Translations under genes and position numbers: made by a program | The notes under the pieces: model-generated | The model's database searches: none | What the model saw: only the letters and a program-made list of their open reading frames with translations | What the model was told of the DNA's origin: nothing | Shown here: piece by piece, positions 1-31,220 of the stretch | Position numbering within the stretch: the stretch's first letter is position 1 | Layout of the letters: each line of letters starts with the position of its first letter | Assembly (NCBI GenBank): GCA_044341565.1 | Contig: JBIIRM010000005.1 | Location: forward strand, 882-64,881 | Reading direction: 5' to 3' | DNA length: 64,000 nucleotides | From: Minisyncoccia bacterium | Lineage (GTDB): Bacteria; Patescibacteriota; Minisyncoccia; SW-4-49-11

Positions 1-1759
1 ATGTAACCCATGGCCATGATGGGTTGGTCCGTGTAACCGTATCTGTAATTAAAGTATTTGCTTGTGTACTTGTATTAGCCCCAACTGATGTGAATTGCGC
101 TCCTCCAATATTTAGAGATGATATCCCCGCTGGCATTTCTATTTGATGCCCCATAGCCATAGTTGTATATCCTGTTGTAGCATTCTGTGAAGAATACGTC
201 TGAATAAATCGATTATTCACTGGGTCCATTACATTTTGCGTTCCAGTATACTGATGACTAGCTGCACTATTGTTTGTTGCACTACTATTTGAATCATATA
301 ATTTGGAGATACCATCTGCACTTAAAATTTGAACCCTACCAGAAGGCCAAATTGACCATCCTGAAACTGGAATAGCACTAGCTGTTCTCCCTGAAAAATA
401 CAACTTATTATTATAATTAGTAAAATCAATAGTACCAGAATTATTAATCCCCCCACCAGCTAAAGTTCTTCCCCATAACAAATTTAGCCCTGAATCAATT
501 GACCATAATCTTCCATCTCCATCGCCAACTACAAATAATTGTCCAGAGCTATCTATAGTTGCTTTTTTAAAAGTAATATTAGAAGATGCACTATATACAT
601 TAATACTATTGACTGTTGAAATATCTAAGGGGAATTGGGCAACGAATCCTTGATTGCTCGTATATATTCCAACTGCTAAAATTGATGTCCCCGTAAATAC
701 AATATCCTGAATTTGTGTACTTACAGCCTCAGTAAATCCTCGGAAAGCATCAATATTTCCTGTTGAAGAAGCTATTTTAGCAATATATCCATCTCTATCT
801 GATGTAGAGCCATATACATAGAGACTGTCATTAGAAGCATTATATTTCATACCTATTACTCTTCGCCCCCCCCCTGAAGATATATTTCTTAAGAAATTTC
901 TTTGCCATTTAATATTCCCCTGATTATCCAATGCCCAAATCGGGATACTATTACCACCAGTAGCAAAATAAAAGGAAATAAATAGATCATTATTAGCCCC
1001 CACGGCTAACACCGGAGTTACACTTGAAAGACCCAATGAGTCTCCTATACTAGGAGATAAAAATCTACTCCATAAAACAACTCCTGTTGCGTCTCTTCTC
1101 ACAATAGCTAATTGTGCTGCAGTCGAAGGAGATTGATAAAAATGAAACACCTGATATGACCCCCCATCCGAAGTTAAAATAATATTTCCTTGAGCATCAT
1201 AGGAGGCAGATCCTATAGTAGCCGCTGTTGTTAGTCTAGACACCCAAATTTGTGGTATTGGAGGTGTTGGAGGTACTACAGATAAAGGGTTTACTACTAA
1301 TGTCTGAGATAATTCTCCATTTAATGCATTAACACTAATTCTATTATTTGTACTATTCCTTGCCACATAATATCCTGTATTTGATCCTGTTGATTGTGGA
1401 TCTCTTGGCATTCCTGCTATATAGGTTGGAATTAATGGTCTTAAATCTAATTTTCCTGTGCAATCTACACTAGGAGGATCTGTTAATAGATCTGTACTAC
1501 TTTTTCGTCCTGTTGCACATACTTCTTGATAACTATCTGTTATTCCTACAGGATATGACCCTGTGTCTATTAATATTTGTTCTAATCCTTTATTTATAGT
1601 ATTTATATCTATTTTCCTTTGTGCATTCCTTGCTTGTGCTAATTGTCTATTTGGGTTTATAGCTATCAATACTATTGCTGCCAATATCCCTATTACAGCT
1701 ATTACTAACAATATTTCTAACAATGTAAATCCTTTACTTACTCTTATTGTCCTTCTCAT
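1..1759 (-). CDS. Type IV pilin-like (prepilin N-terminal domain) large surface protein; C-terminus runs off the window start (partial).
   Basis: Minus-strand ATG at 1759..1757. Translation reads MRRTIRVSKGFTLLEILLVIAVIGILAAIVLIAINPNRQLAQARNAQRK..., a class III signal with the G-F-T-L-L-E prepilin motif. It is a paralog of the 16479..17588 pilin (shared YPVGIT and YIAGMPRDP motifs). The frame stays open to position 1. The plus-strand ORF 1563..1811 in the track is its antisense artifact. Confidence 0.6.
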   Translation of the reverse strand, partial: MRRTIRVSKGFTLLEILLVIAVIGILAAIVLIAINPNRQLAQARNAQRKIDINTINKGLEQILIDTGSYPVGITDSYQEVCATGRKSSTDLLTDPPSVDCTGKLDLRPLIPTYIAGMPRDPQSTGSNTGYYVARNSTNNRISVNALNGELSQTLVVNPLSVVPPTPPIPQIWVSRLTTAATIGSASYDAQGNIILTSDGGSYQVFHFYQSPSTAAQLAIVRRDATGVVLWSRFLSPSIGDSLGLSSVTPVLAVGANNDLFISFYFATGGNSIPIWALDNQGNIKWQRNFLRNISSGGGRRVIGMKYNASNDSLYVYGSTSDRDGYIAKIASSTGNIDAFRGFTEAVSTQIQDIVFTGTSILAVGIYTSNQGFVAQFPLDISTVNSINVYSASSNITFKKATIDSSGQLFVVGDGDGRLWSIDSGLNLLWGRTLAGGGINNSGTIDFTNYNNKLYFSGRTASAIPVSGWSIWPSGRVQILSADGISKLYDSNSSATNNSAASHQYTGTQNVMDPVNNRFIQTYSSQNATTGYTTMAMGHQIEMPAGISSLNIGGAQFTSVGANTSTQANTLITDTVTRTNPSWPWVT

Positions 1760-16478: not shown

Positions 16479-17588
16479 CTAAAAAGCCGAGGTAGGTGGA
16501 GTGAAATTTGCTGTATAACGAGCAATACCTTTTGTAATTCTCAATTCATCAATATAGATACCAGCAGGAGCTGACCACCCCGTTCCAGACCAAGGACTCA
16601 ATCCAATCAGTAAAGGATCAGTAGTTATAACCGTAGGAGTTGCATTAACAGTTGTTTGCAAGATACCATTTAAATAGAATCTATGTGTATCACCTGATCT
16701 ACAGATAGCTACATGATACCACGTATTAGGTGACGGGGTAGGCTGTCCTACATCAGCCCCCGTAAATGTAGTCCCCGATGAGTTGGTAGGATAATATCTC
16801 AGATCGTTCCCACCGTAGTACATAAGTGCAAACTCTGTGTTAATATAGGGATTACCCTTGGTAACAACCATCCCCCCAGAAGATCCAGTTGTCAGGTACA
16901 TAAATAGCTCAATTGTATAATCAACATTTCCAATTTGTAGCGCTGTACTACTTGGTATGGATAAATAGGAATTACTATTTGGAATATATCCACTAGCCCC
17001 ACCAAATCTACTTTGGGTCGTACTAGTTTGCATACCATTAAATGCTGTAGATATATGTGCATTATTACTTCTATCAGTAAAGGTTGTACCTCCATTTGCC
17101 CCATCAAAATTAAATAGCAAAGAAACATTCTCAAAATAAGGATCACTTGGTCCTGTACTGGTTACAACATTCCCCCCACTTCCACTTATTGCTATTGTTG
17201 ATCCTAATTCTGCTTCTGATGCTCTTACTCTTACTCTACTATCTACTATTCCTATCTTATAACTTATTCCACTTGGATCTTCTGGTATACCTGCTACATA
17301 ATCTGGTACCAATACTCCTAGATTTACACATCCTGTCGTATTATTATTTATACATATATCTTGCTCTGTCTCTGTTATACCTACTGGATATCCTTGATTA
17401 TCTATTAGATATTGTTCTAATGCTTTATATAGCGTATTTACTTCTGATCTTCTCTCTGCATTCCTTGCTTGGGCTAATTGTTTATTTGGGTTTATGGCTA
17501 TCAATACTATTGCTGCCAATATCCCTATTGCAGCTATTACCAGAAGTACCTCTAATAATGTAAAACCTTTTTGTTTTTCTCCTCTCAT
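16479..17588 (-). CDS. Type IV pilin-like protein with C-terminal LamG/concanavalin-A-like lectin domain
   Basis: N-terminus KGFTLLEVLLVIAAIGILAAIVLIAINP (prepilin cleavage/methylation motif). The C-terminal ~200 aa has the LamG_3-like pattern (TFTDRSNNAHI...WYHVAICRSGDTHRFYLNG...IYIDELRITKG). The plus-strand ORF 17147..17563 is an antisense artifact. Confidence 0.75.
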   Translation of the reverse strand: MRGEKQKGFTLLEVLLVIAAIGILAAIVLIAINPNKQLAQARNAERRSEVNTLYKALEQYLIDNQGYPVGITETEQDICINNNTTGCVNLGVLVPDYVAGIPEDPSGISYKIGIVDSRVRVRASEAELGSTIAISGSGGNVVTSTGPSDPYFENVSLLFNFDGANGGTTFTDRSNNAHISTAFNGMQTSTTQSRFGGASGYIPNSNSYLSIPSSTALQIGNVDYTIELFMYLTTGSSGGMVVTKGNPYINTEFALMYYGGNDLRYYPTNSSGTTFTGADVGQPTPSPNTWYHVAICRSGDTHRFYLNGILQTTVNATPTVITTDPLLIGLSPWSGTGWSAPAGIYIDELRITKGIARYTANFTPPTSAF

Positions 17589-18714: not shown

Positions 18715-18762
18715 CTATATCTCTCTTATTCGGTACAATATACAAGTACCTTGCAAATCTAA

Positions 18763-18900
18763 TTCCGCGATAGCTTTTACCTCAAAACTGTCCCTTCTCG
18801 CAAAGAAGCCAGAGAATTAGAAAAAAAGTTAAAATCAGGACAAGGAAAAGAATATCTCAAATCAATTATGATTAAGAAATTCAATCTAAATTCTGACTAG
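18763..18900 (+). pseudogene. Truncated remnant of a small GIY-YIG-family nuclease gene (C-terminal ~40 codons only), fused to a duplicate of the tRNA-Asn 5' end
   Basis: The frame reads ...SRKEARELEKKLKSGQGKEYLKSIMIKKFNLNSD*. This matches the characteristic C-terminus of ~90-aa GIY-YIG proteins, but there is no N-terminal GIY/YIG block and no start codon. A 16-nt exact copy of the tRNA-Asn 5' end (taattccgcgatagct, 18760..18775 vs 18903..18918) sits at its 5' edge. Confidence 0.35.
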
Positions 18901-18905
18901 ATAAT

Positions 18906-18980
18906 TCCGCGATAGCTCAGCGGTAGAGCAGTCGGCTGTTAACCGATTGGTCGTAGGTTCGAATCCTACTCGCGGAGCCA
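18906..18980 (+). tRNA. tRNA-Asn (anticodon GTT), CCA encoded
   Basis: Cloverleaf TCCGCGA-TA-GCTC-AGCGGTA-GAGC-A-GTCGG-CTGTTAA-CCGAT-TGGTC-GTAGG-TTCGAAT-CCTAC-TCGCGGA-G-CCA. Confidence 0.85.
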
Positions 18981-19100
18981 AACAAGATAAAGCCAGGGTA
19001 ATTCCTATCTTGAGTTAATTTTTGTATATCTAAAGGGAGAGACTGCAATGTCTCTTGAGTAATAGAATCCCAATCTAGCGGTAATAGTTTCATACTATTA

Positions 19101-20405
19101 TTATATATACTTCTGAGCCTCTTCCCATTCCTCCTCAGATAAATTCCCTTTGATTCCTAGCGCTTTTATAGGTGAGGAAATAAATCTTTGCATCAATGCT
19201 ATCAATTCATTATAGGAAGTTGTCCTAATATTATTATAATAGTCATCGGGAGTATATATAATCCCCTCAGGATATTGTAATAAAGATCCATAAAACTCAT
19301 TCAAGGCATAAATACTAGAATAATATTGCTTAGAAGCACTTATTTGTGCTATTTTGAATCTTTCAATATCTTCTATTGTAATATATTGCGTAAAGTTATG
19401 TAATACGGTATTAATTATCTGTAGTGATTCAATAAGAGACTCTTTATTTATAGTATATGTTATTGCAATATTATAAGAACCTCCATAGTCATAATAATCA
19501 GTATTAACCCAATATATTAACCCCCTTTTCACTCTGAGTTCCTGTAATAAAATTGATGTCCAGAAATTTCCTAATGCTGTACGTAATAAAGCAAGTGAAG
19601 CACAATCTTTATAGTAAAAAGACCCTTGAAGTCCATAATTAAATACACCTTTTATATTGTCTTCTGAAGAATTGAGTACTATATTTGTAGAAGATACATT
19701 TTCTATTAGTGTGTTAGTAGACAAGGAATGAGAAATGCCATCTTCCTCTAAGATTATTGCCGAGATATCAGGAGAGATAATAACTAAATGAGCCTTATCT
19801 TTGGTATAATGCAATTGTGCATACTGGATATATTGCTCATACGAAATATTGTCTAAATCTCCAAATACATCTTGTGCTAAAGCTGATCCAAAGAAAAGAT
19901 TATCAAATGTACGTCGTTCTATATCAGTTTCTGAATCTTGTTTTTCTTGAGCAATGATTTTCTTTTCTTTATCAAATATCTCTTGAGATACTGATTCTTG
20001 ATCAAAATTTTTCAATAATAATTGAAGAGACGATATTAGATGAGCTGGATCTTGTATATGAGAATAATTGGTTAAATATGCTGCTGTGTAAGCACTAGCA
20101 CTAATACCATACTCTTCTAAAGTTTTTGCCTTAGTATATTCATCATCTCCTCCTGCCCAAAGATGTTCAAAAAAATGAGATAACCCTTGAGCATTAGCAT
20201 CATCAAGTGCATATCCTCGTGCAAACCAAAGAGATGCAGAAGACATAATTTGTTGCTTATCTTCTATTACTGTTGTCTTTATTCCTTGATATATCCCCTG
20301 TTTAATATTGGACATAATAATGTTGTTTAAACTATACTCAGTATATATAAAATAATGAGGGAAGGCAACTTGTACCTTCCCTGTTTGGAACATGGAGCTA
20401 AACAA
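19101..20405 (-). CDS. M16-family (pitrilysin/insulinase-like) zinc peptidase
   Basis: Inverted zinc motif HxxEH in GLSHFFEHLWAGG, with the overall M16 N-domain layout. The true start may be the internal Met (MSNIKQG, ~20315). Confidence 0.65.
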   Translation of the reverse strand: MFSSMFQTGKVQVAFPHYFIYTEYSLNNIIMSNIKQGIYQGIKTTVIEDKQQIMSSASLWFARGYALDDANAQGLSHFFEHLWAGGDDEYTKAKTLEEYGISASAYTAAYLTNYSHIQDPAHLISSLQLLLKNFDQESVSQEIFDKEKKIIAQEKQDSETDIERRTFDNLFFGSALAQDVFGDLDNISYEQYIQYAQLHYTKDKAHLVIISPDISAIILEEDGISHSLSTNTLIENVSSTNIVLNSSEDNIKGVFNYGLQGSFYYKDCASLALLRTALGNFWTSILLQELRVKRGLIYWVNTDYYDYGGSYNIAITYTINKESLIESLQIINTVLHNFTQYITIEDIERFKIAQISASKQYYSSIYALNEFYGSLLQYPEGIIYTPDDYYNNIRTTSYNELIALMQRFISSPIKALGIKGNLSEEEWEEAQKYI

Positions 20406-20418
20406 CTAATGTTGAGGC

Positions 20419-20517
20419 TTACTTGCCACCACCACCAGGTCGAGTAGGAGCGGGACCGCCGCCGCCAGTACCTTTCGTTCCACTTCCAGGGTTACCATGA
20501 CGATTGTTGTTGCCCAT
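20419..20517 (-). CDS. Glycine-rich micro-ORF 2 (32 aa: MGNNNRHGNPGSGTKGTGGGGPAPTRPGGGGK)
   Basis: ATG preceded by cggagaattacctca (GGAG about 11 nt upstream), an upstream context nearly identical to that of micro-ORF 1. GC-rich. The alternative reading is the 100-aa track ORF 20419..20721 in the same frame. Confidence 0.3.
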   Translation of the reverse strand: MGNNNRHGNPGSGTKGTGGGGPAPTRPGGGGK

Positions 20518-20569
20518 TGAGGTAATTCTCCGAAGTACTAAATGGATTAGACCTTGATACAGTGAGGGA

Positions 20570-20659
20570 TCATTTCCCCCGGGTACCCGAGCCACCACCA
20601 TGTCCACCGCCATTGCCGGTGCCGCCACCGGTTTTGGTTCCACCTGTTTGAGCTGCCAT
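20570..20659 (-). CDS. Glycine-rich micro-ORF 1 (29 aa: MAAQTGGTKTGGGTGNGGGHGGGSGTRGK)
   Basis: First ATG downstream of the predicted promoter, preceded by cggagattcatttca (GGAG). It has its own TGA stop and is in a different frame from the 100-aa track ORF. Confidence 0.3.
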   Translation of the reverse strand: MAAQTGGTKTGGGTGNGGGHGGGSGTRGK

Positions 20660-20705
20660 TGAAATGAATCTCCGAGCGAGGGTGTAATGAGACGGAAATG
20701 TCTCG

Positions 20706-20752
20706 CAATAAAATCTATCATGATTATTAATATTTGTCAATAGTTGTCAATT
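20706..20752 (-). promoter_or_regulatory. Strong sigma70-like promoter (two phased TTGACA boxes) driving the glycine-rich micro-ORFs and M16 peptidase
   Basis: The minus strand reads ATTGACAActATTGACAAatattaataatcatgaTAGATT. TTGACA has a 17-nt spacer to TAGATT; the second TTGACA has 17 nt to ATAATC. Confidence 0.45.
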
Positions 20753-20794
20753 ATATTAATTCTTCCTGAAAACCTCCTAGATTACCCACTCAAA

Positions 20795-20824
20795 GGTTCG
20801 AACATTGTCCAACTCGCGGAGCCA
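20795..20824 (+). repeat. Degenerate direct repeat of the tRNA-Asn 3' end (att-like remnant)
   Basis: ggttcgaa-cattgtcca-actcgcggagcca versus tRNA-Asn ggttcgaa-tcct-actcgcggagcca: exact matches of 8 and 13 nt, 1.8 kb downstream of the tRNA. A weaker third copy lies at 23282..23310 (tctaactcccgaagcc). Confidence 0.55.
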
Positions 20825-20895
20825 ACTCCCCTTAAACAGCTTAATCGTAATATTCTCAATTAATGCTATACTATATGTATATTTAACTCTATTAT

Positions 20896-22443
20896 ATGAA
20901 AGTTAGTAGAAAAATCTTTTTCATAGCCCCAGGGATTATATTGTTATGTGTAGTGATATTAAGTGGGTATATAATAATGAATAGTAATACTCAATCAGCT
21001 ACCTCTCCTAATACACCACCCTACTTAACGGAAGTAAGGGATTATACATTACATAATACTATTTCATTTATAAAACCAATTGATTATACAAAATACCAGG
21101 ATAATCAGGAAGATCTAGATATTGCTATGCAAAAAACCTATCTCGAGGGAGGAATAACTTTTGATGAATTTTTAGAACTGAATAGTATGGTAAATTTAAT
21201 AGATAATAATCTTAAAGATATAGAAGCAAATCTATATTACAACTCAGAAACTGTGCTATCTGGAGTTATTTTGAGCTCTAATAAAGAAGATTTTTATACA
21301 AATGCACGCCAAAAACTACAAGAGTTGAATATTAATTCCCCAGATCTCACCTCTCTCAAAATCACTGAGATATATTTTCGGACCACCTCTCAAGATTCTA
21401 GAGCTTTAGAGTTAGCTTATTTATTCAATATCAACACTGATGTTGAATTTAATAAAAATCTTAAAATAAAACTAGATAATGCTATTAACTCTAATAATTA
21501 CTCCGATTTAGAAAATACAGGATTAAATATATCTAGCCCTTATAATACCGATAATTATGGACTCAAAAGATTAAAAAGGGAGAATGAAGAAAAGACTAAG
21601 AGATTAGCACAAATTGAGTCCTGTATACTTGATTTATATATTCAAGAAGCCAATTTAAAGATTAGATTAAATCAACCTACATGGAGCACCAAAAAAGACC
21701 AATATACAGAAACTATATCTAATCTAAGTAATAAAATTGGATCAATAAACTCACAAGGAGAAAGGACTATAATAGGATGTGAACAATATCATTTCCACAA
21801 TATCCAAATCAGATTCACAAAACCACTCTCTATTAGTGATATTCAAGAGATTGAGAATACCTTACCATTAATTTATCCCAAAAAATATATAGCGGAATTA
21901 GATCCAGACTATAGGACTAACACTACTAGTGCAGAAATAGACATATTAAATGCTCAATTTGATGACTATGGACCTGAAGACTATACTTATCGTGATATAG
22001 ATTTAATAACCACCACATCTACTGAAACTTCACAGTTATTTGCTTTATTTAATCCTGGGAAAAATTGGGAAGATATGAAAAATAATTATTATCAAAATCG
22101 TACATACTTAAATATCCCTAAAGATAGTGTCGAGAAATATAGAAATGACCAGGATACAATCTATTACTTTACTAACAACCCTCAGTATACTAATTTAAGT
22201 ACTCAGTATATTGATGGTGTTACTCTCTTTACCACAACCCTAGACGATCCATATCTATGCTTACAACAATTATTAACATCAGATAACCACTCATCTTGTA
22301 GTGTATTCTCTTTAAATCAAAGCCAGAAAAAGCTCTTACAATCCTACATAAAATTGATTGAAATTACCCCTGTAACACCACATACCCACACAGACTTATA
22401 TAAATTTGAGGTAAGCCCAACTTCTTCTTTTTGGGTAAAGTAA
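20896..22443 (+). CDS. Hypothetical secreted/membrane-anchored protein (515 aa)
   Basis: N-terminal TM/signal anchor, then an Asn/Thr/Tyr-rich body with no recognizable domain. Confidence 0.5.
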   Translation: MKVSRKIFFIAPGIILLCVVILSGYIIMNSNTQSATSPNTPPYLTEVRDYTLHNTISFIKPIDYTKYQDNQEDLDIAMQKTYLEGGITFDEFLELNSMVNLIDNNLKDIEANLYYNSETVLSGVILSSNKEDFYTNARQKLQELNINSPDLTSLKITEIYFRTTSQDSRALELAYLFNINTDVEFNKNLKIKLDNAINSNNYSDLENTGLNISSPYNTDNYGLKRLKRENEEKTKRLAQIESCILDLYIQEANLKIRLNQPTWSTKKDQYTETISNLSNKIGSINSQGERTIIGCEQYHFHNIQIRFTKPLSISDIQEIENTLPLIYPKKYIAELDPDYRTNTTSAEIDILNAQFDDYGPEDYTYRDIDLITTTSTETSQLFALFNPGKNWEDMKNNYYQNRTYLNIPKDSVEKYRNDQDTIYYFTNNPQYTNLSTQYIDGVTLFTTTLDDPYLCLQQLLTSDNHSSCSVFSLNQSQKKLLQSYIKLIEITPVTPHTHTDLYKFEVSPTSSFWVK

Positions 22444-23362: not shown

Positions 23363-24091
23363 TCATCTATTTATCCAGGCGAAAATTCTGTTCAATTCCG
23401 ATATAATATCTTTATCTAATATTTTTCCATGAGCCATTATAATTCTTTTTGGATTTAAAACTTTAACCCGATCAATTGATTTTTTTAATAATTGATGATT
23501 ACCCCCAAATAATGCTCTTTGGTCTTTAGTTGTACCTCCATTTGGATGCAAAGCCCCACCTATATATGCTAAAGCTCGGAAAAATGGATTTATTTTCTTT
23601 GCTTCAAAATTCTCTATAATATCAGTTACAATCCAGGATTGACTAGGAAAATGAAAAAAAGTATACTCAGTCATAAATCGATTACCATACATAGGCAGAA
23701 TTTCTAAATCTGGAAAATAATCCTGCTTTAAATCCTTTAATTCCTTATTCCACCTTATATCTTGACCAGCTTTTTTACTCCGTCTTCGTACTCCATCACT
23801 GGCAAAAGTAACTGCTTCTGGATATGCTTTTTGGAAATCATATATATACCAATAGTGAATTTTATTTGGAGATATTAAATACTTTACATTTCCTAACTCA
23901 TCTAATTCTTGCTTCAAAGCACTCGTTAAACTAATTGGAGAGTGGATGAAAAGGTCATTATTAGAAAATCTTATTACTACCATTCTCGTAGTAAATGGCA
24001 TTCCATAAAAATATATTATAGGACCATCTACAATCCATAGATTTTCACTAATTAATTTTAACGTATGTATTGGTTGATACAAATTATCCAT
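23363..24091 (-). CDS. DUF4336-like protein (hypothetical)
   Basis: Pattern LWIVDGP...TTRMVVIRF.NNDLFIHSPI.LT..L..EL..LG.VKYLISPNK.HY resembles the DUF4336 family. Confidence 0.45.
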   Translation of the reverse strand: MDNLYQPIHTLKLISENLWIVDGPIIYFYGMPFTTRMVVIRFSNNDLFIHSPISLTSALKQELDELGNVKYLISPNKIHYWYIYDFQKAYPEAVTFASDGVRRRSKKAGQDIRWNKELKDLKQDYFPDLEILPMYGNRFMTEYTFFHFPSQSWIVTDIIENFEAKKINPFFRALAYIGGALHPNGGTTKDQRALFGGNHQLLKKSIDRVKVLNPKRIIMAHGKILDKDIISELNRIFAWINR

Positions 24092-24330
24092 ATTATTTTT
24101 ATGATTCTATTGTAATTATACACATTTATATATATTTTATCTACTTATAAAATTTATCTCCTCTCAAAACTATAGTGAGCCCCCTTTAGGGTAATTAGTA
24201 CTCTCTACCTCTCATTTTTATTATTGATTTTGAGAGAGTATGATGAGAAAAACGTAAGAATAAAGAATCCCCCCACTTAGGTGAGAGGATTGTTGGAATT
24301 AGAGTTTACTTATCTTTCGTAGAGATTAAC

Positions 24331-25302
24331 TCAGTGATTTGCCTTTGCTAATAAAGCCTGTTTACTAGGAATCCGTAGCTGATAAGCCCAACCAAGACGC
24401 TCCAGAAATCGTATGAAGTAGTAGGTAGGGTCTGGTAATGTCACTACCTTGTTACCCTGTAGGGTAAAGCCTTGTCTTGCTGAGTATTCGAAGCTATGGT
24501 GTAGATTATGCCAACCTTCGCCAAGAGTGATAATAGCCACCCAAGGGTTGTTACGACTACCATCGCGGGTAATGAATGGCTGATCACCTACTAAGTGGGC
24601 CACAGAGTTTACCGTAGCAACACCGTGGAACAAAAGAGTAGTACTCAGACAAAATGCACCCAACCATTCTATACCACCGATATGCCAGGAGATCCAAGCT
24701 AATGCCAAAGCTGGCACTATATGTAGTCTATCGATCAAACGTAATACAGGATCAGACTCTATATCAGCTGGTAGGGTACTAGGATGAAATCCAGGTGAAA
24801 GTATCCAACCTATCTGAGAATGCCAAAAACCATGCAGTCGATTTCTATACATCAGAGGGCTATGAGGATCATCCAAGGTATCAACATGACGATGATGAGC
24901 CTTGTGATGAGCCTTCCACCAACTTGGTCCCATCTGGCCTGCTGAGGCTGTTATTATGGATCCGATCCACCATACTAGTCTAGGAGCCTTATAGCTATTG
25001 TGAGTAATCAAGCGATGGTAAATGGCAGTAATTCCAAGCATCCGTACTAGGTATAATACTGTAGCCCAGAGGATGGCGTATAATCCAAGTCTCTCCCGAA
25101 ACAGCAGTAGACAGCCTATATGCGCAACCAGTATGAATACCGGTCCCATACCATGCAAAAACCGAAGGAGATGGGATTGGGAAATAGAATGGGAAGATAC
25201 TGCTGTGGAACTGATAGATTTTGAATTAAACATCAGCATATTCCAGTCTAAACTGGACCATAAGGACATAAACACCTTAGCATACTTATTATGTTTAATC
25301 AA
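24331..25302 (-). CDS. desC: Acyl-CoA/acyl-lipid delta-9 fatty acid desaturase (membrane di-iron, three His boxes)
   Basis: His boxes HRLITH, HKAHHRHVDTLDDPHSP and GEGWHNLHHSF match the stearoyl-CoA/DesC delta-9 desaturase family. The body is ~45% GC against a ~30% background. The AT-rich first ~50 codons suggest the true start may be an internal Met (~25149). Confidence 0.75.
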   Translation of the reverse strand: MIKHNKYAKVFMSLWSSLDWNMLMFNSKSISSTAVSSHSISQSHLLRFLHGMGPVFILVAHIGCLLLFRERLGLYAILWATVLYLVRMLGITAIYHRLITHNSYKAPRLVWWIGSIITASAGQMGPSWWKAHHKAHHRHVDTLDDPHSPLMYRNRLHGFWHSQIGWILSPGFHPSTLPADIESDPVLRLIDRLHIVPALALAWISWHIGGIEWLGAFCLSTTLLFHGVATVNSVAHLVGDQPFITRDGSRNNPWVAIITLGEGWHNLHHSFEYSARQGFTLQGNKVVTLPDPTYYFIRFLERLGWAYQLRIPSKQALLAKANH

Positions 25303-25349
25303 TATACAGAAATATATCTATTCTAGGATATGATACTTCTATCCTTCAA

Positions 25350-25382
25350 AGAAAAATCCCTCCAGCTGAACCAGAGGGATTG
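25350..25382 (-). terminator. Rho-independent terminator downstream of the ADO gene (minus strand)
   Basis: Plus strand aatccctc-cagctgaacca-gagggatt preceded by gaaaaa, i.e. stem plus T-run on the minus strand. Confidence 0.6.
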
Positions 25383-25401
25383 AATTAGATTGAATTGTAG
25401 A

Positions 25402-26103
25402 TCAGATTAGGGCTGCGGTAGCGAGCTTGGCGATTTCACGGGTGGAGAATCCGATTTTCGTCAAAGCTTCTTGATATGAGATGAGGAAATCCTCAATGAG
25501 GTCTTCCCTGTCCATTTGGAGGACGGCCGCGTCACCGGCTACCTGATCAAGCATAATGCGTACCAATGGGAGATTGTCCCGATTGGCCTGCTCCAACTCC
25601 TTACGAATAGCTTCGAAATTAGACCTAAGCCATTCTTGACCATAATTGAGATGAGCGTATTCATCCTTGACTACTCCCTCGGTGATTTTCCGTGCAAACG
25701 GATCAGCAACTGGGATATAGATGTGATAAGCTGCAATTGCAAAGGCCTCGATGAGAATCGCTTGAATCAGCAAACAGGTGACTACCTTCCTCTCTGTAAA
25801 AGCTTTTTGAAAATTACCATGTAGGGGCAAGAAAAACTCTTTAGCAAAAGGTATATCTGCTTGCACTCCCAAGTTGCGGGCACAGGCAGTGAAACCCTTC
25901 ATATGCCTCAGCTCCATACCCGCAAGGCGGGTAAGCTCTTCAGCCTGATCGGGTAGCAAGCTACCAAGGGAAATGTAATTGTCATAAGCTTCTTGCTCAC
26001 CTTCAATCACAATTGCATTGATGCGACTATAAGCATCTTTGTAATCCCTGGTGGTGAAATCTGGTAGACCTTCCACAAGTGGTTTAGAAGACGTAATTGA
26101 CAT
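25402..26103 (-). CDS. ado: Aldehyde-deformylating oxygenase (cyanobacterial-type fatty aldehyde decarbonylase, ferritin-like di-iron)
   Basis: Very close match throughout to cyanobacterial ADO: [128 protein letters not shown] is clearly elevated relative to flanking genes. Confidence 0.9.
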
Positions 26104-26317
26104 GGTAGATACTGGATAAAATCCAATGGGGCAATCTCATTATACACTTTTTATACCTTTTGTATATAGGTGCATACATCCTATTATCTTAATAATATAC
26201 TATCAATTTCATACTCTCATATATATTAAAATTAGCTTTATAAGCTTTTAAAACCCATATTAAGTATATATAAGTTAAAGGTAAAGTGAGGTCAAGGTGA
26301 AGACTATTTCTGTACCC

Positions 26318-26342
26318 CCTTGTGCAAATAATGTGCACAAGG
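26318..26342. promoter_or_regulatory. 9-bp inverted repeat (ccttgtgca-aataatg-tgcacaagg) in the divergent ado/fasciclin intergenic region; candidate operator
   Basis: Exact 9-bp arms, 39 nt upstream of the fasciclin ATG. Confidence 0.3.
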
Positions 26343-26380
26343 TATACTTAAAAGGTATTAATAACTAATATCGTACCGAT

Positions 26381-27022
26381 ATGAAGACAAAGTCATTGAA
26401 ACACAGTATTGCCCTGTCCCTATTAGCTTTTGCTCTTGTATTAAGTCCTCTTTATGCAAGCGCTGCTACTGATACTATCACTGGTTTGTTAAACAAAACA
26501 AGTGATTTATCTACTCTTAAAACTCTTGTAGGGTTGGCAGAATTAGATGGAGCATTAGATAGCACTTCTTCCCAGTACACTGTATTCGCACCTAAGGACT
26601 CTGCTTTCGCAGCACTTCCTAAAGAAGTTACTGATGCATTAGTAAAGCCAGCTAATAAAACTGTTCTCGCTGGAATTCTAAAATATCATGTAATTCCTAG
26701 CAAAATTCTTTCTACTGATTTAGCTGCAACTCAAACTGTAACTACCTTAAATGGAGATACTTTAGTTGTAAAAAAAGCTGATGGTAAAGTTACTATCACT
26801 GACAAAGTAGGTACTATTTCTACTGTAACTACTGCTGATGTAGAAGCTACAAATGGAGTTGTTCATATTGTAGACAAAGTTCTTCTTGACAAAGCATATG
26901 ACTTTTCTACCCCAACAAAATTACAAAGCACAGGTATTAACTTAGTTATTCCTGCAATTGTAAGTGGTATATTAATTCTAGGTGCAATCTTTATCTATAC
27001 GAGAAAATCTTCAAAGATCTAA
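26381..27022 (+). CDS. Fasciclin (FAS1) domain surface protein with signal peptide and C-terminal TM anchor
   Basis: FAS1 blocks TVFAPKDSAFAALP, LKYHVIP and VVHIVDKVLL; N-terminal signal and a C-terminal hydrophobic segment. Confidence 0.8.
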   Translation: MKTKSLKHSIALSLLAFALVLSPLYASAATDTITGLLNKTSDLSTLKTLVGLAELDGALDSTSSQYTVFAPKDSAFAALPKEVTDALVKPANKTVLAGILKYHVIPSKILSTDLAATQTVTTLNGDTLVVKKADGKVTITDKVGTISTVTTADVEATNGVVHIVDKVLLDKAYDFSTPTKLQSTGINLVIPAIVSGILILGAIFIYTRKSSKI

Positions 27023-27103
27023 TAGTATATTGTCCTGATTAAAAAGAGGTGTTAGTATTACTATAGCCTCTTTTTAATTTTTCTATCAAGCTTAATCCTA
27101 TTT

Positions 27104-27745
27104 ATGAATAGACATTTTTTGAAAATTTTAAATACATTTTTATTAATACTTATTATTATAAGTGCTGTATATATTATAGGAGCACCATTTTTTCCTCAAT
27201 TAATAAAAGCTGAGAAGACTGAAAATCCTTCTGAGGAAGCTCAAAGCTCAATAGAGATAGTTAATTCACCTACTAATACAGCCCCTATAGCATTACAATC
27301 TCCTGAAGCTAAGCCAAAAGAAAGACCTCCTGCTGATAAGAATAATGCTGATAAAAACTTTAATATCGCTATATCATCTCTTAAATTAAATTCTAAACTT
27401 TTTACGAGTAATACTAATAAGGATTTAGGAAAAGGTATTTGGCATAGAAGTAGTACTGGTAATCCTCTTTCTGGAGGAAATATGGTTATATCTGCTCATA
27501 GATTTCTGTATACTGGGAATAATAACACTTTTTATCGTCTTCCAGACATCAAATTAGATGATACTATAGTGATAACATGGGAAGGGAAACAATATGATTA
27601 TAAGGTAACAAAATTATTTGAAGTTACTCCAGATGCAGTTGAAATTGAAGCTCCCACAGAAGAGCATATATTAACTCTCTATACTTGTATTCCTCTTTGG
27701 ACTAGTGCTAAACGATTTGTGGTACAAGCAGCCCCCCTATTCTAA
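27104..27745 (+). CDS. Sortase family transpeptidase
   Basis: N-terminal TM anchor, with conserved His (ISAHRF), TLYTC catalytic Cys motif and a downstream Arg. Confidence 0.7.
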   Translation: MNRHFLKILNTFLLILIIISAVYIIGAPFFPQLIKAEKTENPSEEAQSSIEIVNSPTNTAPIALQSPEAKPKERPPADKNNADKNFNIAISSLKLNSKLFTSNTNKDLGKGIWHRSSTGNPLSGGNMVISAHRFLYTGNNNTFYRLPDIKLDDTIVITWEGKQYDYKVTKLFEVTPDAVEIEAPTEEHILTLYTCIPLWTSAKRFVVQAAPLF

Positions 27746-27952
27746 TATTTCTCTATTATGACTGAAATTAAAAAAACAATATTATTAAGCTTTATCTTAT
27801 TTGTATTGATAGCTATTATGTTTATTGCACAATACTCACAACTATAATAATTTAAAAGAAAATTAAGGATATATCTGGTATTATAGCTTGACTTTTACCT
27901 CATTTCCTGTTAGTGTTTCAAAGCATACTCTTCGGGGTATCGTTCTTTCACA

Positions 27953-29158
27953 ATGGAGCATTTAACCATGTCTGCTCAGACACGTGTTGAGAGATTTTTT
28001 GATAAGGCAGGAGTTGACCAAACCTTTATTACTGCAACTTCTAATTTTTATAAAGCTTTCAATGGACGGTTCACCCTTGGAATGGGTGAATCTTATATCA
28101 ATGGCAGTTTTGCGATTGGCGATGAGAATCTCATCGCAATGTTCACCAAGATTTTTGCAAGCTTGAATGGATTCTTGCGGGGAGATGATTATGCGGGGTT
28201 TAGCTCACTGGGATTTTATCGGCTGTATCAGCTGATGAATGCCACCCAAATGATCAATTGGCAGTACATTCGTGCAAAGTATTTTGCGGATATTCACTAT
28301 GAGCTACCTCATCAGCTTTTTGTCCAGATGCTTGGCCCCTCTCGGGCTTATAGCTCTGGGTATTGGCCAGAAGGGGTGGAGACTCTAGACCAAGCCCAGG
28401 ATGCCAAGTTTGACTTGATTATCCGCAAGCTTGGCTTAGAAGCTGGCGACACCGTCCTCGACTTCGGTTGTGGGGCGGGTAGTTTTGGCAGATATGCAGG
28501 ATCTCGCGGTATTCGAGTCGTTGGACTCAATATCTGCCAGGAGCAACTCGCTTATGCTCGAGCTCACAATGACCAAGAAGTTACTGCCATTTACCTTGAT
28601 TTTAATTTGGTAACACAAAGTGTTGCTGAGTTACAATCAATTCTCAAACCCTATGGGATTGAGAACTTTGATGCTGTGACCTTTATTGGCTCGATTGAGC
28701 ATGTGGGGTGGAAGAATTATGATTCCCTCTATCGCAAACTCAATCAGCTTATGAATCCTACGGGACGGATTCTCTGCCATGTTATTGGATCCTATATTCC
28801 ATTACCGGTGGCCGATCCCTATATCATGACCAAGATTTTCCCTGACTCGCAGCTTGCTGTGAACAGTGAAATGACAAGGGCAACTGAGAAGGCTGGTTTC
28901 CAGCTAATGGATTGGCATAACCTGGAAACAGGTATTCACTCCTATGCCAAGACACTGAGAGCTTGGCTTAACAACTTCCAAACCAACTGGGAAACTATCA
29001 AGCCCTCTATGCCTCACAAAGATAAGGAAGCCTTTTACAGGGAATGGGTATTCTACCTAATGCTCTGTATTGGAGCCTTCGAGTCTGACTTTGTCAATGT
29101 TGGACACTATGTGTTCCGCAAGACTGCAGACACTCGCCCATTCACTCCAGCCCGCTAA
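27953..29158 (+). CDS. Cyclopropane-fatty-acyl-phospholipid synthase-like SAM-dependent methyltransferase
   Basis: CFAS/mycolic-acid-synthase family layout with SAM motif I VLDFGCGAGSFGRYAG. GC is elevated (up to ~50% in the 3' half). Confidence 0.7.
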   Translation: MEHLTMSAQTRVERFFDKAGVDQTFITATSNFYKAFNGRFTLGMGESYINGSFAIGDENLIAMFTKIFASLNGFLRGDDYAGFSSLGFYRLYQLMNATQMINWQYIRAKYFADIHYELPHQLFVQMLGPSRAYSSGYWPEGVETLDQAQDAKFDLIIRKLGLEAGDTVLDFGCGAGSFGRYAGSRGIRVVGLNICQEQLAYARAHNDQEVTAIYLDFNLVTQSVAELQSILKPYGIENFDAVTFIGSIEHVGWKNYDSLYRKLNQLMNPTGRILCHVIGSYIPLPVADPYIMTKIFPDSQLAVNSEMTRATEKAGFQLMDWHNLETGIHSYAKTLRAWLNNFQTNWETIKPSMPHKDKEAFYREWVFYLMLCIGAFESDFVNVGHYVFRKTADTRPFTPAR

Positions 29159-29171
29159 ATCAATCACTCAT

Positions 29172-29197
29172 AAGGAAGCATTTCGCTTCCTTTTTTA
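29172..29197 (+). terminator. Rho-independent terminator after the methyltransferase gene
   Basis: aaggaagc-atttc-gcttcctt followed by ttttttatt. Confidence 0.65.
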
Positions 29198-29266
29198 TTA
29201 CTCTTGTTATTTTACTCATAATATATTATGATAAAGCCGTTGTGAAAATAATAATATACTAAATAT

Positions 29267-29626
29267 ATGAAAAATTTGGGTATAGAGATTGTAGGAGATC
29301 TCAAAGGTATTGATAAAGAATTTTTAACTCATATTAATAGTGATGAAATTCAGGCTGAGATTTCTCGACTTATTACTCATTATGGATTCAATGAGCTGGG
29401 AAACTATTATCATTCTTTTGAACCAGGTCTTACAGCTGCTGTAGCGCTTGCTGAATCTCATGTTACCTTTCATACTTGGCCGGAATTTGGATATGTAAGC
29501 TTGAATGTTTTTACCTGTAATTATACTAAGGATAATGATGATAATGCTAAAGCTTTATTTGATGATATTGCCTCCCTATTCCGAGCAGAGAATATAGATA
29601 AACAAATTATTTTACGCAATCATTAG
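29267..29626 (+). CDS. speH: S-adenosylmethionine decarboxylase proenzyme (small, SpeH/SpeD class 1)
   Basis: Pyruvoyl self-cleavage motif AESHVTFHTWPE in a 119-aa protein. Confidence 0.85.
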   Translation: MKNLGIEIVGDLKGIDKEFLTHINSDEIQAEISRLITHYGFNELGNYYHSFEPGLTAAVALAESHVTFHTWPEFGYVSLNVFTCNYTKDNDDNAKALFDDIASLFRAENIDKQIILRNH

Positions 29627-29679
29627 AAATAAAAAAGCCCCCGACAAATGCCGGGAGCTGAGTGGAAGGGCAAAAGCCC

Positions 29680-29943
29680 TTATTGTTTGTGAACCTTCCC
29701 AGGTAGTGAAGGGTTGGGGTTGGTCGGATCCACACCCAACAGCGCCGGCCCAGTTAGGGCTGCAAGGCCCACAACCAAAAGACCTAGCAACACCTTCTTG
29801 AAGGGTGAGCGACGATCCTGACGAGGAGGGAGAGGGGGATCGAGAACAACTCGATCCACTTTGAGGTTACCCCCTTTGAGAAAAGGGGGAAGCTCAGGCC
29901 CCACTCGGGCAACATTGAGAAAGGCGGGAAGTTCAGGTGCCAT
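29680..29943 (-). CDS. Hypothetical proline-rich small membrane protein encoded in a GC-rich patch
   Basis: 87-aa ORF (~55% GC) with one TM helix. A minus-strand hairpin plus T-run (29638..29668) lies just downstream. Coding status is uncertain because GC-rich DNA yields long ORFs by chance. Confidence 0.3.
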   Translation of the reverse strand: MAPELPAFLNVARVGPELPPFLKGGNLKVDRVVLDPPLPPRQDRRSPFKKVLLGLLVVGLAALTGPALLGVDPTNPNPSLPGKVHKQ

Positions 29944-30065
29944 TGAATGAACAAAACAATGTATTTCAAAAAAAATTATACCACAAAAACCCTATTTTGT
30001 CAATATACAATAACATTATTTTAACATATGCTTGCGAATTTTACTGGAAAAGGTATACTATCTTT

Positions 30066-31220
30066 ATGAATATATTACCCCCTTTGCGCTATATTAAATC
30101 TTTATTCTCTGCCCGTATAAGCCCATTGATTACGGTACATATTGATGGGGCGGACTTATTACATAATTTGAGAGAATATAGACAAGCCTATCCAGATATA
30201 CAATTTGCACCTGTACTCAAAAGCAATGCCTATGGACATGGACTAATCCCTATTGCTCGTATATTAGATAACGAGAATATTCCTTTTTTGATTGTCGACT
30301 CTTATTATGAGGCTTTGACCCTGCGGCAAAATGATATCAAATCCCCTATTCTAATTATTGGGTATATTGCTCCTGAAATTATCAAAAAATCTCGGATCAA
30401 AAATGTATATTTCACCGTGACAAGTCTAGCCCAATTGCAGAGAATTGATGATATTATTCGCCACCCCATATCTATACATCTCAAAATCGATACTGGAATG
30501 CATAGACAAGGTTTATTGCCGACTGAAATTCATCAAGCTATTACTATTATTAAAAAGAATTCCTCTATACAATTACAAGGTATATGCTCTCATCTGGCTG
30601 ATGCGGATAGCAAGAGACGCAAATATAATAAAGCTCAATTAGAGCAATGGGAGCAAAGTATTCAATTTTTTAAAACGACTTTTCCTAATCTCAAGTATTA
30701 TCATATATCTGCTAGTGCTGGGCTTATACATACGGCTAAATCTCATCATAATCTCGCTCGATTAGGTTTAGGATTATATGGAATTAGTATTATTGAAAAT
30801 AATAAACTCTCATTAAAACCTGCTCTCAAACTCACCTCTATTATTAGTGGGATAAAAGTTATTAAAAAAGGAGATGCCGTTGGATATAATAATACCTTTA
30901 TTGCCAAAAATGATATGTTAATCGCGACTATACCCGCTGGTTATGCTGAGGGAGTCGATCGCAGATTATCTAATATCGGGCAGGTAGAGATAGACGGAAC
31001 TTTATGCCCTATTATTGGGCGAGTAAGTATGAATATTACCACTATTGATATTACACATATACCTAATATTCAAATTGGGGATATAGTGACTCTTATCAGC
31101 AATGACAATTCCTCCCCTATTTCTGCCAATGCTATCGCTAAAATATGCGATACTATTCCCTATGAAATTCTGATACATATTCCAGGGTATTTGCACCGAG
31201 AGATCATTAAAATAAAATAA
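30066..31220 (+). CDS. alr: Alanine racemase
   Basis: PLP-lysine motif PVLKSNAYGHGL and the C-terminal domain. Start taken at MNILPPLRY (30066) rather than the track ORF start at 29937. Confidence 0.85.
   Translation: MNILPPLRYIKSLFSARISPLITVHIDGADLLHNLREYRQAYPDIQFAPVLKSNAYGHGLIPIARILDNENIPFLIVDSYYEALTLRQNDIKSPILIIGYIAPEIIKKSRIKNVYFTVTSLAQLQRIDDIIRHPISIHLKIDTGMHRQGLLPTEIHQAITIIKKNSSIQLQGICSHLADADSKRRKYNKAQLEQWEQSIQFFKTTFPNLKYYHISASAGLIHTAKSHHNLARLGLGLYGISIIENNKLSLKPALKLTSIISGIKVIKKGDAVGYNNTFIAKNDMLIATIPAGYAEGVDRRLSNIGQVEIDGTLCPIIGRVSMNITTIDITHIPNIQIGDIVTLISNDNSSPISANAIAKICDTIPYEILIHIPGYLHREIIKIK

Follow-up and report, generated by a model that had tools for sequence, protein, structure and literature searches.

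We analyzed a 64-kb stretch of the genome of a Minisyncoccia bacterium (contig JBIIRM010000005.1, positions 882 to 64,881; hereafter the window; mean GC (guanine plus cytosine) content 34%) and identified, on its minus strand, what is best read as a lineage-restricted micro-protein gene that stands alone and is equipped with signals for strong expression. Here the gene would consist of two cistrons, and its products are likely cationic peptides that act in trans on a variable partner; we put the probability of this reading at roughly 0.6, and our verdict on the gene family is that it is new. A first-pass annotation of the window, made from the letters of the DNA, had described two consecutive open reading frames (ORFs) of about 30 codons at this site, and both were found with exactly the sequences given there:

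20570 to 20659, minus strand: micro-ORF 1 (ORF1), 29 amino acids (aa), MAAQTGGTKTGGGTGNGGGHGGGSGTRGK, type A; indicated by codon-position-3 bias and the ratio of nonsynonymous to synonymous substitution rates (dN/dS)
20419 to 20517, minus strand: micro-ORF 2 (ORF2), 32 aa, MGNNNRHGNPGSGTKGTGGGGPAPTRPGGGGK, type D; a diverged paralogue of ORF1

The Gly contents of the two products are 48% (ORF1) and 41% (ORF2) instead of the 50-60% claimed in that annotation. In a survey of all six frames of the window, these two were the only ORFs with at least 30% Gly. They lie within a GC spike at 20340-20720 that reaches 59%, against the 34% mean, and is among the strongest in the window.

Related loci were collected by a search anchored on the M16 peptidase encoded downstream of the micro-ORFs, and the count of loci in which the two are adjacent is therefore biased. 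A genome scan with the M16 protein gave three loci (two from metagenome-assembled genomes (MAGs) labelled Candidatus Paceibacterota and one from an 'uncultured bacterium'), and a protein database contained 16 M16 orthologues, for ten of which the contigs were fetched. Including the contigs of an 88%-identical haplotype, this amounted to 15 distinct M16 loci from Candidatus Paceibacterota MAGs and metagenomes. The micro-ORF cassette occupied the same place in the same orientation in nine of them, so that the whole unit, peptides together with their upstream context, for which the first-pass annotation had suggested a search of related genomes, was recovered repeatedly. Two-ORF cassettes were found in the window and in L002 (copies L003, L004, and L008), and single-ORF cassettes in L007, L016, L010, L017, L011, L019, and L018. 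A locus identical to that of the window is also present in NCBI assembly GCA_041442895.1. The six distinct cassette-free loci are L005, L012, L013, L014 (copy L015), L020, and L006. The first five share one common junction, at which divergent msrB/msrA genes lie directly upstream of the terminator hairpin described below, and L006 has a second, independent junction. A scan anchored on the cassette itself, which was made with type A only, added a single known haplotype.

The encoded peptides, which are 24-36 aa long, fall into four types. Type A is MAAQTGGTKTGGGTG[N/K][G/C][G/S]GHGGGSGTRGK (ORF1 of the window, L002, L007, and L016), type B is MAKN[T/S]GGGTKSNSGGRPSQNTGGTGGTNGTRGK (L010 and L017), and type C is M[T/L]TQMG[T/P]N[T/Q]GGGTGQGTGGGGTGGGGWGGGSGTRGK (L011 and L019). 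Type D comprises ORF2 of the window and of L002 together with MANNNGGGGSQGWGNGSSRPRPGK of L018; this type-D-like ORF is the sole ORF of L018, sits in the same slot, and shares the leader, the spacing of the ribosome-binding site, and the stop context. Across all types the peptides contain no Asp or Glu and at most one residue of ILVFYW, carry a net charge of +2 to +5, and are 33-53% Gly, with Thr, Asn, Ser, His, Lys, and Arg among the other residues. Cys is absent from all but one variant. Short conserved ends (M-A/T/G-x-N/Q... and ...R-G/P-(G)n-K) surround a variable middle, and every type terminates in Gly-Lys. No clear leader/core split and no known cleavage motif of the GG/GA type was recognized in the four types; the first-pass annotation had suggested looking for a conserved cleavage motif before the Gly-rich core. 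The codon use of the micro-ORFs is shifted to C- and T-ending codons: GGC accounts for 37% of their Gly codons, compared with 5% genome-wide, and the GC content at third codon positions is 0.41 compared with 0.24. This shift fits either selection for efficient translation or a foreign origin, and the two are not separable.

Comparison of the orthologues showed that the predicted micro-ORFs are under purifying selection on their amino-acid sequence. Within types A, B, and C, 34 of the 42 variable nucleotide sites fall at codon position 3 (binomial P = 3e-10), and among the variable codon columns 29 are purely synonymous and 7 residue-changing, compared with 0-1 synonymous columns in each of the other two same-strand frames. 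In type A alone, position 3 holds nine of 11 variable sites, and ORF1 compared with L002, L007, and L016 gave dN/dS values of 0-0.2, which is also the range within types in general (Nei-Gojobori method, NG86). Between L011 and L019, whose untranslated regions (UTRs) are strongly diverged, the peptide had a dN of 0.076 and a dS of 0.90, while the M16 gene had a dN of 0.38 and a dS of 1.8. The central part of the ORFs is unalignable between types, and the reading frame is still retained. The start codon, the Shine-Dalgarno (SD) sequence (GGAG or GAGG), and the stop codon are likewise retained in the nine distinct loci, across five ORF lengths (75, 90, 99, 102, and 111 nt).

The expression signals upstream of and between the two ORFs are as follows:

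20735 to 20750, minus strand: two overlapping −35 boxes (TTGACAactaTTGACA), with TTGACA at 20750-20745 and 20740-20735
20712 to 20728, minus strand: −10 region, with AATAAT at 20728-20723 followed by a TG-extended TAGATT at 20720-20712
20689 to 20704, minus strand: 5' stem-loop GAGAC-N6-GUCUC around the predicted transcript start
20670 to 20673, minus strand: SD sequence GGAG of ORF1, 10 nt before the ATG
20528 to 20531, minus strand: SD sequence GGAG of ORF2, 10 nt before the ATG, in an ORF1-like context (tcggaga.t.a..tcaATGG)

The promoter that had been proposed for the micro-ORFs (two TTGACA boxes, a 17-nt spacer, and TAGATT) is thus present on the minus strand where it was placed. The −10 candidate TAGATT (20717-20712) is preceded by TG and gives the 17-nt spacer with 10 of 12 consensus matches, and the alternative AATAAT gives a 16-nt spacer with 11 of 12. 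The promoter is kept in every cassette locus. TTGACA itself occurs in eight of the nine, the version in L019 being TTGATA-17-TAATAT with TG. From these elements, transcription is predicted to start near 20705. The 5' stem-loop, a candidate mRNA stabilizer, has its five pairs intact in all nine sequences; in L019 both partners of one pair have changed in a compensatory manner (C-G to U-A), and wobble changes occur as well. The near-identical GGAG-bearing context that the first-pass annotation had noticed before both ORFs could be reproduced, with GGAG exactly 10 nt from each ATG. An SD sequence is present in all orthologues (GAGG in L019). Within −20 to −5 of the first ATG, GGAG or GAGG was found before both micro-ORFs and before none of the 48 long genes of the window, so the genome appears to use SD sites almost never. 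Judging from these signals, the micro-protein gene is probably highly expressed. Within the 52-nt spacer between ORF1 and ORF2, the final ~20 nt of the leader, GGAG among them, occur a second time, and ORF2 (type D) may have come to stand in tandem with ORF1 (type A) when a duplication or an unequal recombination event brought it there together with this ~20-nt leader and its SD sequence. As a separate observation, the 23-nt pattern of the double −35 region (TTGACARCTATTGACAAANNTTA) also occurs in two related GC-rich phage contigs of IMG/VR (L021, 9609-9631; L022, 3873-3895). The sequence downstream is unrelated, and the matches are probably a coincidence or a convergent strong promoter.

The micro-ORFs are separated from the peptidase gene by two further elements that the first-pass annotation did not contain, listed here together with the peptidase gene:

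20348 to 20382, minus strand: predicted intrinsic terminator of the micro-ORF transcript, a 10-bp GC-rich hairpin (20382-20358) with a U-rich tail
20340 to 20368, minus strand: candidate promoter of the M16 gene, TTGCCT-17-TATACT, with its −35 box within the 3' arm of the terminator
19101 to 20315, minus strand: M16B zinc peptidase gene, 404 aa, HFFEH motif; Pfam Peptidase_M16 (1e-11) and Peptidase_M16_C (2e-09)

The terminator hairpin starts 36 nt past ORF2. Its core has no broken pair in the nine cassette loci; L016 lacks the 5'-most base. At three positions Watson-Crick pairs alternate with G.U pairs (A-U/G.U, C-G/U.G), a pattern that holds only for RNA of the minus strand. A Rho-independent terminator function is predicted from the conserved hairpin and the U-run. 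The hairpin is kept even in cassette-free loci; in two of them (L012 and L020) the 5' arm has two mismatches and the 3' arm is intact. The candidate M16 promoter, whose activity is predicted, is kept in all 15 loci, the cassette-free ones included. In this small sample, the pattern agrees with the hairpin working for the micro-ORF transcript and its 3' arm for M16. The next gene on the same strand is indeed an HxxEH M16 peptidase as had been annotated, since both the HFFEH motif and the Pfam domains confirm it. The protein carries EKKIIAQE ~75 residues after HFFEH and has no signal peptide, and among solved structures the nearest is 3HDI, an M16B 'processing protease'.

The peptide types are distributed over the M16 loci independently of the peptidase. 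Type A peptides accompany M16 proteins as little as 57% identical to each other and type C peptides M16 proteins 54% identical, and the M16 proteins of L007 (type A) and L018 (type D) are 91% identical. No co-variation of peptide type with M16 was detected, either for the whole protein or for its N-terminal part. A sliding comparison of the window with L007 gave 80-93% identity over the cassette and the initial ~300 nt of M16 and 50-60% over the remainder of M16; the locus is therefore a recombination mosaic. The M16 gene itself is mosaic as well. Its N-terminal ~100 residues, which contain the HxxEH part, are 71-95% identical across clades, and the rest 39-58%. Between the window and L007, dS of M16 is 0.50 in the 5' part and 1.87 in the rest, a difference suggestive of recombination tracts in which the cassette is included. 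Downstream of M16 in six loci (L010, L011, L014, L016, L017, and L018) we observed a same-strand S9/S15-like alpha/beta hydrolase of ~281 aa and/or a 276-aa NUDIX protein. Both are missing from the window, where a tRNA-Asn gene directly follows M16, and the window thus represents a shortened version of this gene group.

Under the preferred reading, that of a stand-alone micro-protein gene, the products would be free, cationic, and probably disordered peptides rich in Gly, Thr, Asn, and Ser that act in trans. Their exact sequence would matter, and their occurrence in discrete types suggests that they recognize a variable partner. Hosts, competitors, and strain-specific targets are conceivable partners, by analogy with polymorphic peptide-signal and bacteriocin loci. 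The M16B peptidase, transcribed separately, would be no more than a plausible enzyme for the turnover or trimming of these roughly 3-kDa peptides. A bolder version, in which the peptides form a hitherto unrecognized class, leaderless and unmodified, whose allelic types serve type-specific recognition between these episymbiotic Paceibacterota and their hosts or between strains, be it as effector, signal, or antagonist, and in which M16B adjusts their amount or trims their conserved ends and has co-travelled with them as cargo of the tRNA-Asn islet under reshuffling by recombination, seems to us unlikely. Several points weigh against the preferred reading. The sample is small, with nine distinct cassette loci from one narrow clade, and part of the conservation of type A (window versus L007) reflects recent recombination and not long-term constraint. 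ORF2 is identical in the only other two-ORF haplotype and thus offers no variation for a substitution test. The antisense +1 frame, which is Pro-rich, mirrors the substitution bias with 28 synonymous and 11 nonsynonymous columns. The transcription start, the translation, and the peptides are all predicted from the DNA, and the trans role and its variable partner are deduced from the pattern of variation. No co-varying partner gene was found in the fetched flanks, and there is no export signal, which leaves an extracellular role without a visible route.

The first-pass annotation took the peptides to be precursors or substrates matured by the adjacent M16B peptidase into secreted antimicrobial or surface peptides, and we consider this explanation unlikely. 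Small peptides without structure are substrates of M16 enzymes, some of which serve pathways for peptides that are made on ribosomes and modified after translation (RiPPs), for example PqqF and AlbE/AlbF. In all nine cassette loci the cassette and M16 share a strand, with the cassette immediately upstream, at M16 identities down to 49-57% and with outer flanks that differ in almost every locus, both genes lie inside one tRNA-Asn-bracketed islet, and the conserved peptide termini could be recognition or trimming sites. However, this adjacency was counted in loci found through M16 and is biased accordingly, and the genes are set apart by a terminator and by a distinct M16 promoter, both of them conserved. 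Six distinct M16 loci, derived from two loss events, lack the cassette, and peptide type is independent of M16; a dedicated, RiPP-like processing system is not supported. In addition, the peptides lack Cys (except in one variant), a recognizable leader/core split, and a GG/GA-type motif. Within ±10 kb in the window and in the fetched flanks there was neither a RiPP-type enzyme nor a second M16 subunit, and no exporter and no immunity gene either, and Pfam scans of the window neighbours and of the called genes of related loci detected no radical-SAM, YcaO, Lan, or ThiF protein; the neighbouring genes encode instead HAD, NUDIX, S9-like hydrolase, MsrA/B, GNAT, and similar proteins. The order of promoter, Gly-rich short ORF (33-53%), hairpin with U-run, and gene would also suit cis-acting leader peptides that control the terminator and hence M16 expression by attenuation, and so would the conserved C-terminus and stop context and the retention of the hairpin in cassette-free loci. 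Nevertheless, RNAalifold on the nine sequences returned the terminator and small local hairpins only, with no conserved antiterminator (a GCCUC/GAGGC pairing is possible in some loci and is not conserved), and the stop codon lies ~36 nt from the stem, beyond the reach of a terminating ribosome. Purifying selection spans the whole peptide and not merely a codon run, all four synonymous Gly codons are used, M16 has a promoter to itself, which overlaps the hairpin's 3' arm, and the number of cistrons varies from two in some genomes to one in others. Attenuation is thus a very unlikely account of the locus.

Whether the segment is coding at all, and in which frame, is a related matter. In AT-rich genomes, a GC spike that has a promoter and a terminator to itself is what small RNAs typically look like, conservation of the UTRs on either side is high, and between the haplotypes of the window and L002, ORF2 and the spacer show 0-1 changes while ORF1 differs at seven sites; the segment might accordingly be a non-coding or dual-function RNA in which the ORFs are incidental. 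Against this, the substitution pattern is codon-like, the centre is unalignable between types and frame, start, SD sequence, and stop are kept nonetheless, folding is no better than for shuffled sequence, and no Rfam family matched even under permissive settings, which makes an RNA gene most improbable. It is extremely unlikely, in our judgment, that the real gene is a 100-aa ORF at 20721-20419 on the minus strand or an antisense, Pro-rich ORF on the plus strand. The 100-aa ORF is the version reported by gene callers (P0001 and P0002), with an 88%-identical counterpart in another haplotype. Its frame is truncated to 8-63 aa in six loci (L007, L016, L010, L017, L011, and L018), and all seven window-versus-L002 substitutions in the ORF1 region change a residue in it. 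Its ATG (20721-20719) overlaps the extended −10 element and therefore lies upstream of the predicted transcription start, a placement that the first-pass annotation had already held against the longer ORF and that its position confirms. That annotation had named conservation in the single 100-aa frame as the finding that would speak for the longer ORF; none was seen, the frame being broken in other loci, and the substitutions are synonymous in the micro-ORF frame, which supports the annotation's choice of the micro-ORFs as the coding units. As for the antisense frame, its position-3 pattern arises because GGN is the complement of NCC, and the substitution pattern itself is not decisive; what excludes this frame is that stops interrupt it in type B and in L019 and that it has neither a start nor a promoter.

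Homology searches retrieved nothing that would place the peptides in a described family. Word-indexed protein searches with the 100-aa ORF and with ORF1 and ORF2 joined returned only the identical and the 88%-identical mis-called ORFs, and an exhaustive HMMER search of 1.84 billion representatives with a 56-aa extended ORF1 gave one spurious low-complexity match. There was no match for any peptide type in Pfam and NCBIfam at E values up to 10, and a search of the Protein Data Bank (PDB) with the peptides gave nothing meaningful. A metagenome scan with back-translated AQTGGTKTGG found one further copy of a known haplotype and one chance match in a GC-rich rhodanese gene, viral contigs contained no match to the pattern of the cassette 3' end, and literature searches, peptide motifs included, found no relevant paper. 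At the RNA level, Rfam at the gathering threshold detected only tRNAs in the window and in 11 loci. With permissive settings, the region 20250-20900 gave only a spurious 'Prion pseudoknot' match at 20588-20615 on the minus strand (18.7 bits against a cut-off of 39), which is an artefact because GGN repeats resemble the prion octarepeat region. Folding compared with shuffled sequence gave z-scores of +0.71 and −0.85, that is, no excess stability.

We also compared the locus with systems that are part of established knowledge, namely RiPP/M16 pairs, microcins, pherotypes, attenuators, and eukaryotic Gly-rich peptides. PqqA-PqqF/PqqG and SboA-AlbE/AlbF resemble it in that a very short peptide gene stands beside an HxxEH M16B-type peptidase and in that the peptide is within the size range that M16 chambers accept. 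Unlike these pairs, the present locus has no modifying enzyme, second M16 subunit, or exporter, forms separate transcription units with a terminator between them, and shows no clear leader/core architecture; M16 also occurs without the peptide, and there is no sequence similarity. The Gly-rich microcins (McbA; MccV and MccE492) share a very high Gly content, a ribosomal origin, and a polymorphic, island-like location. However, the McbBCD (YcaO-type) enzymes that McbA, the microcin B17 precursor, needs in addition to Cys/Ser are absent here, as are the double-glycine leader, hydrophobic core, C39-ABC exporter, and immunity gene of class II microcins, and the present peptides are 24-36 aa long, leaderless, and almost free of hydrophobic residues. 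In having discrete, divergent alleles that are conserved within a type, have conserved sequence on both sides, and move by recombination independently of the neighbouring genes, the locus is reminiscent of pherotypes (comC/CSP of streptococci, agrD/AIP of staphylococci, and comX of Bacillus), although the co-varying export or processing partners and receptors of those systems are not visible and the peptides have no leader or signal sequence. Attenuators such as trpL, hisL, and tnaC likewise combine a promoter, a short ORF rich in one residue, a terminator, and a conserved C-terminal/stop context, in contrast to which we find no conserved antiterminator, selection on the whole peptide, a separate promoter for the downstream gene, and a variable number of cistrons. 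The likeness to eukaryotic Gly-rich cationic peptides and polyglycine-II proteins such as shepherins, acanthoscurrins, and the snow-flea antifreeze protein is one of composition (33-53% Gly, no acidic residues). These eukaryotic Gly-rich proteins have no detectable homology to the present peptides (PDB), are secreted with signal peptides, are often longer, and come from a different kingdom.

Bacteria of the Candidate Phyla Radiation (CPR) have tiny genomes, and most of their biology, especially their dealings with hosts, is unknown. A micro-gene that has the strongest expression signals of its neighbourhood, a peptide better conserved than the adjacent enzyme, and discrete recombining types would therefore be a concrete candidate for an interaction molecule in an uncultured lineage. 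Gene callers either miss this gene or annotate it wrongly, as a hypothetical protein of 100 aa. The locus also illustrates that what looks like an RNA, a GC spike in AT-rich surroundings, may be a micro-gene made of Gly codons, and that the antisense frame has to serve as a control when third positions of GGN-rich ORFs are tested. Were the link to M16 real, the locus would be a minimal peptide-peptidase module without other maturation machinery.

The cassette and M16 lie between two tRNA-Asn sequences:

18906 to 18980, plus strand: functional tRNA-Asn (GTT), convergent with M16
20785 to 20825, plus strand: decayed copy of the tRNA-Asn 3' half, directly upstream of the cassette promoter

The remnant matches the tRNA at 17 of 18 positions (20808-20825 versus 18964-18981), and the two bracket a 1.84-kb islet containing M16 and the micro-ORFs. 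The passing remark in the first-pass annotation about a tRNA-flanked island is thereby borne out, with an intact tRNA-Asn on one side and a decayed 3'-half copy on the other. From the remnant outward, flanks differ between genomes, and a former tRNA terminator is still visible beside the remnant in L010, L011, and L016. On this sequence evidence, the bracketing tRNA sequences are what an old integration at tRNA-Asn has left behind. A 16-nt exact copy of the tRNA-Asn 5' end (TAATTCCGCGATAGCT; 18760-18775 and 18902-18917) lies 142 nt upstream of the tRNA, and this second fragment suggests repeated rearrangement at tRNA-Asn. In L016, a second tRNA-Asn-like 3' end (575-725, minus strand) carries a ~110-nt GC-rich insert at the T-loop position, whose multi-branched fold is closed by the T-stem (minimum free energy −56.9 kcal/mol, z = −2.36) and which has no match in Rfam or ARAGORN. 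L019 contains at 240-420, directly upstream of the cassette promoter, a structured-looking GC-rich segment without an Rfam match.

Elsewhere in the window, a gene block of raised GC content (23363-31220, with spikes of 48-60%) is unusual for a CPR bacterium. It encodes a cyanobacterial-type long-chain aldehyde decarbonylase (Pfam Ald_deCOase, E = 1e-115), a fatty-acid desaturase, a DUF4336 protein, a cyclopropane-fatty-acid-synthase-like methyltransferase, a fasciclin protein, and a sortase. Because the decarbonylase also occurs near M16 in two other independent assemblies (L010, 1-1162; L011, 1-235), the block is probably a real, horizontally acquired island and not the product of a chimeric contig. 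The decarbonylase had at first raised the suspicion of a cyanobacterial origin, which was dropped since related loci carry the label Candidatus Paceibacterota. Finally, the gene at 16479-17588 on the minus strand encodes a type IV pilin-like protein with an N-terminal methylation motif, fused to a LamG/concanavalin-like domain; fusions of this kind are typical of CPR surface appendage proteins.

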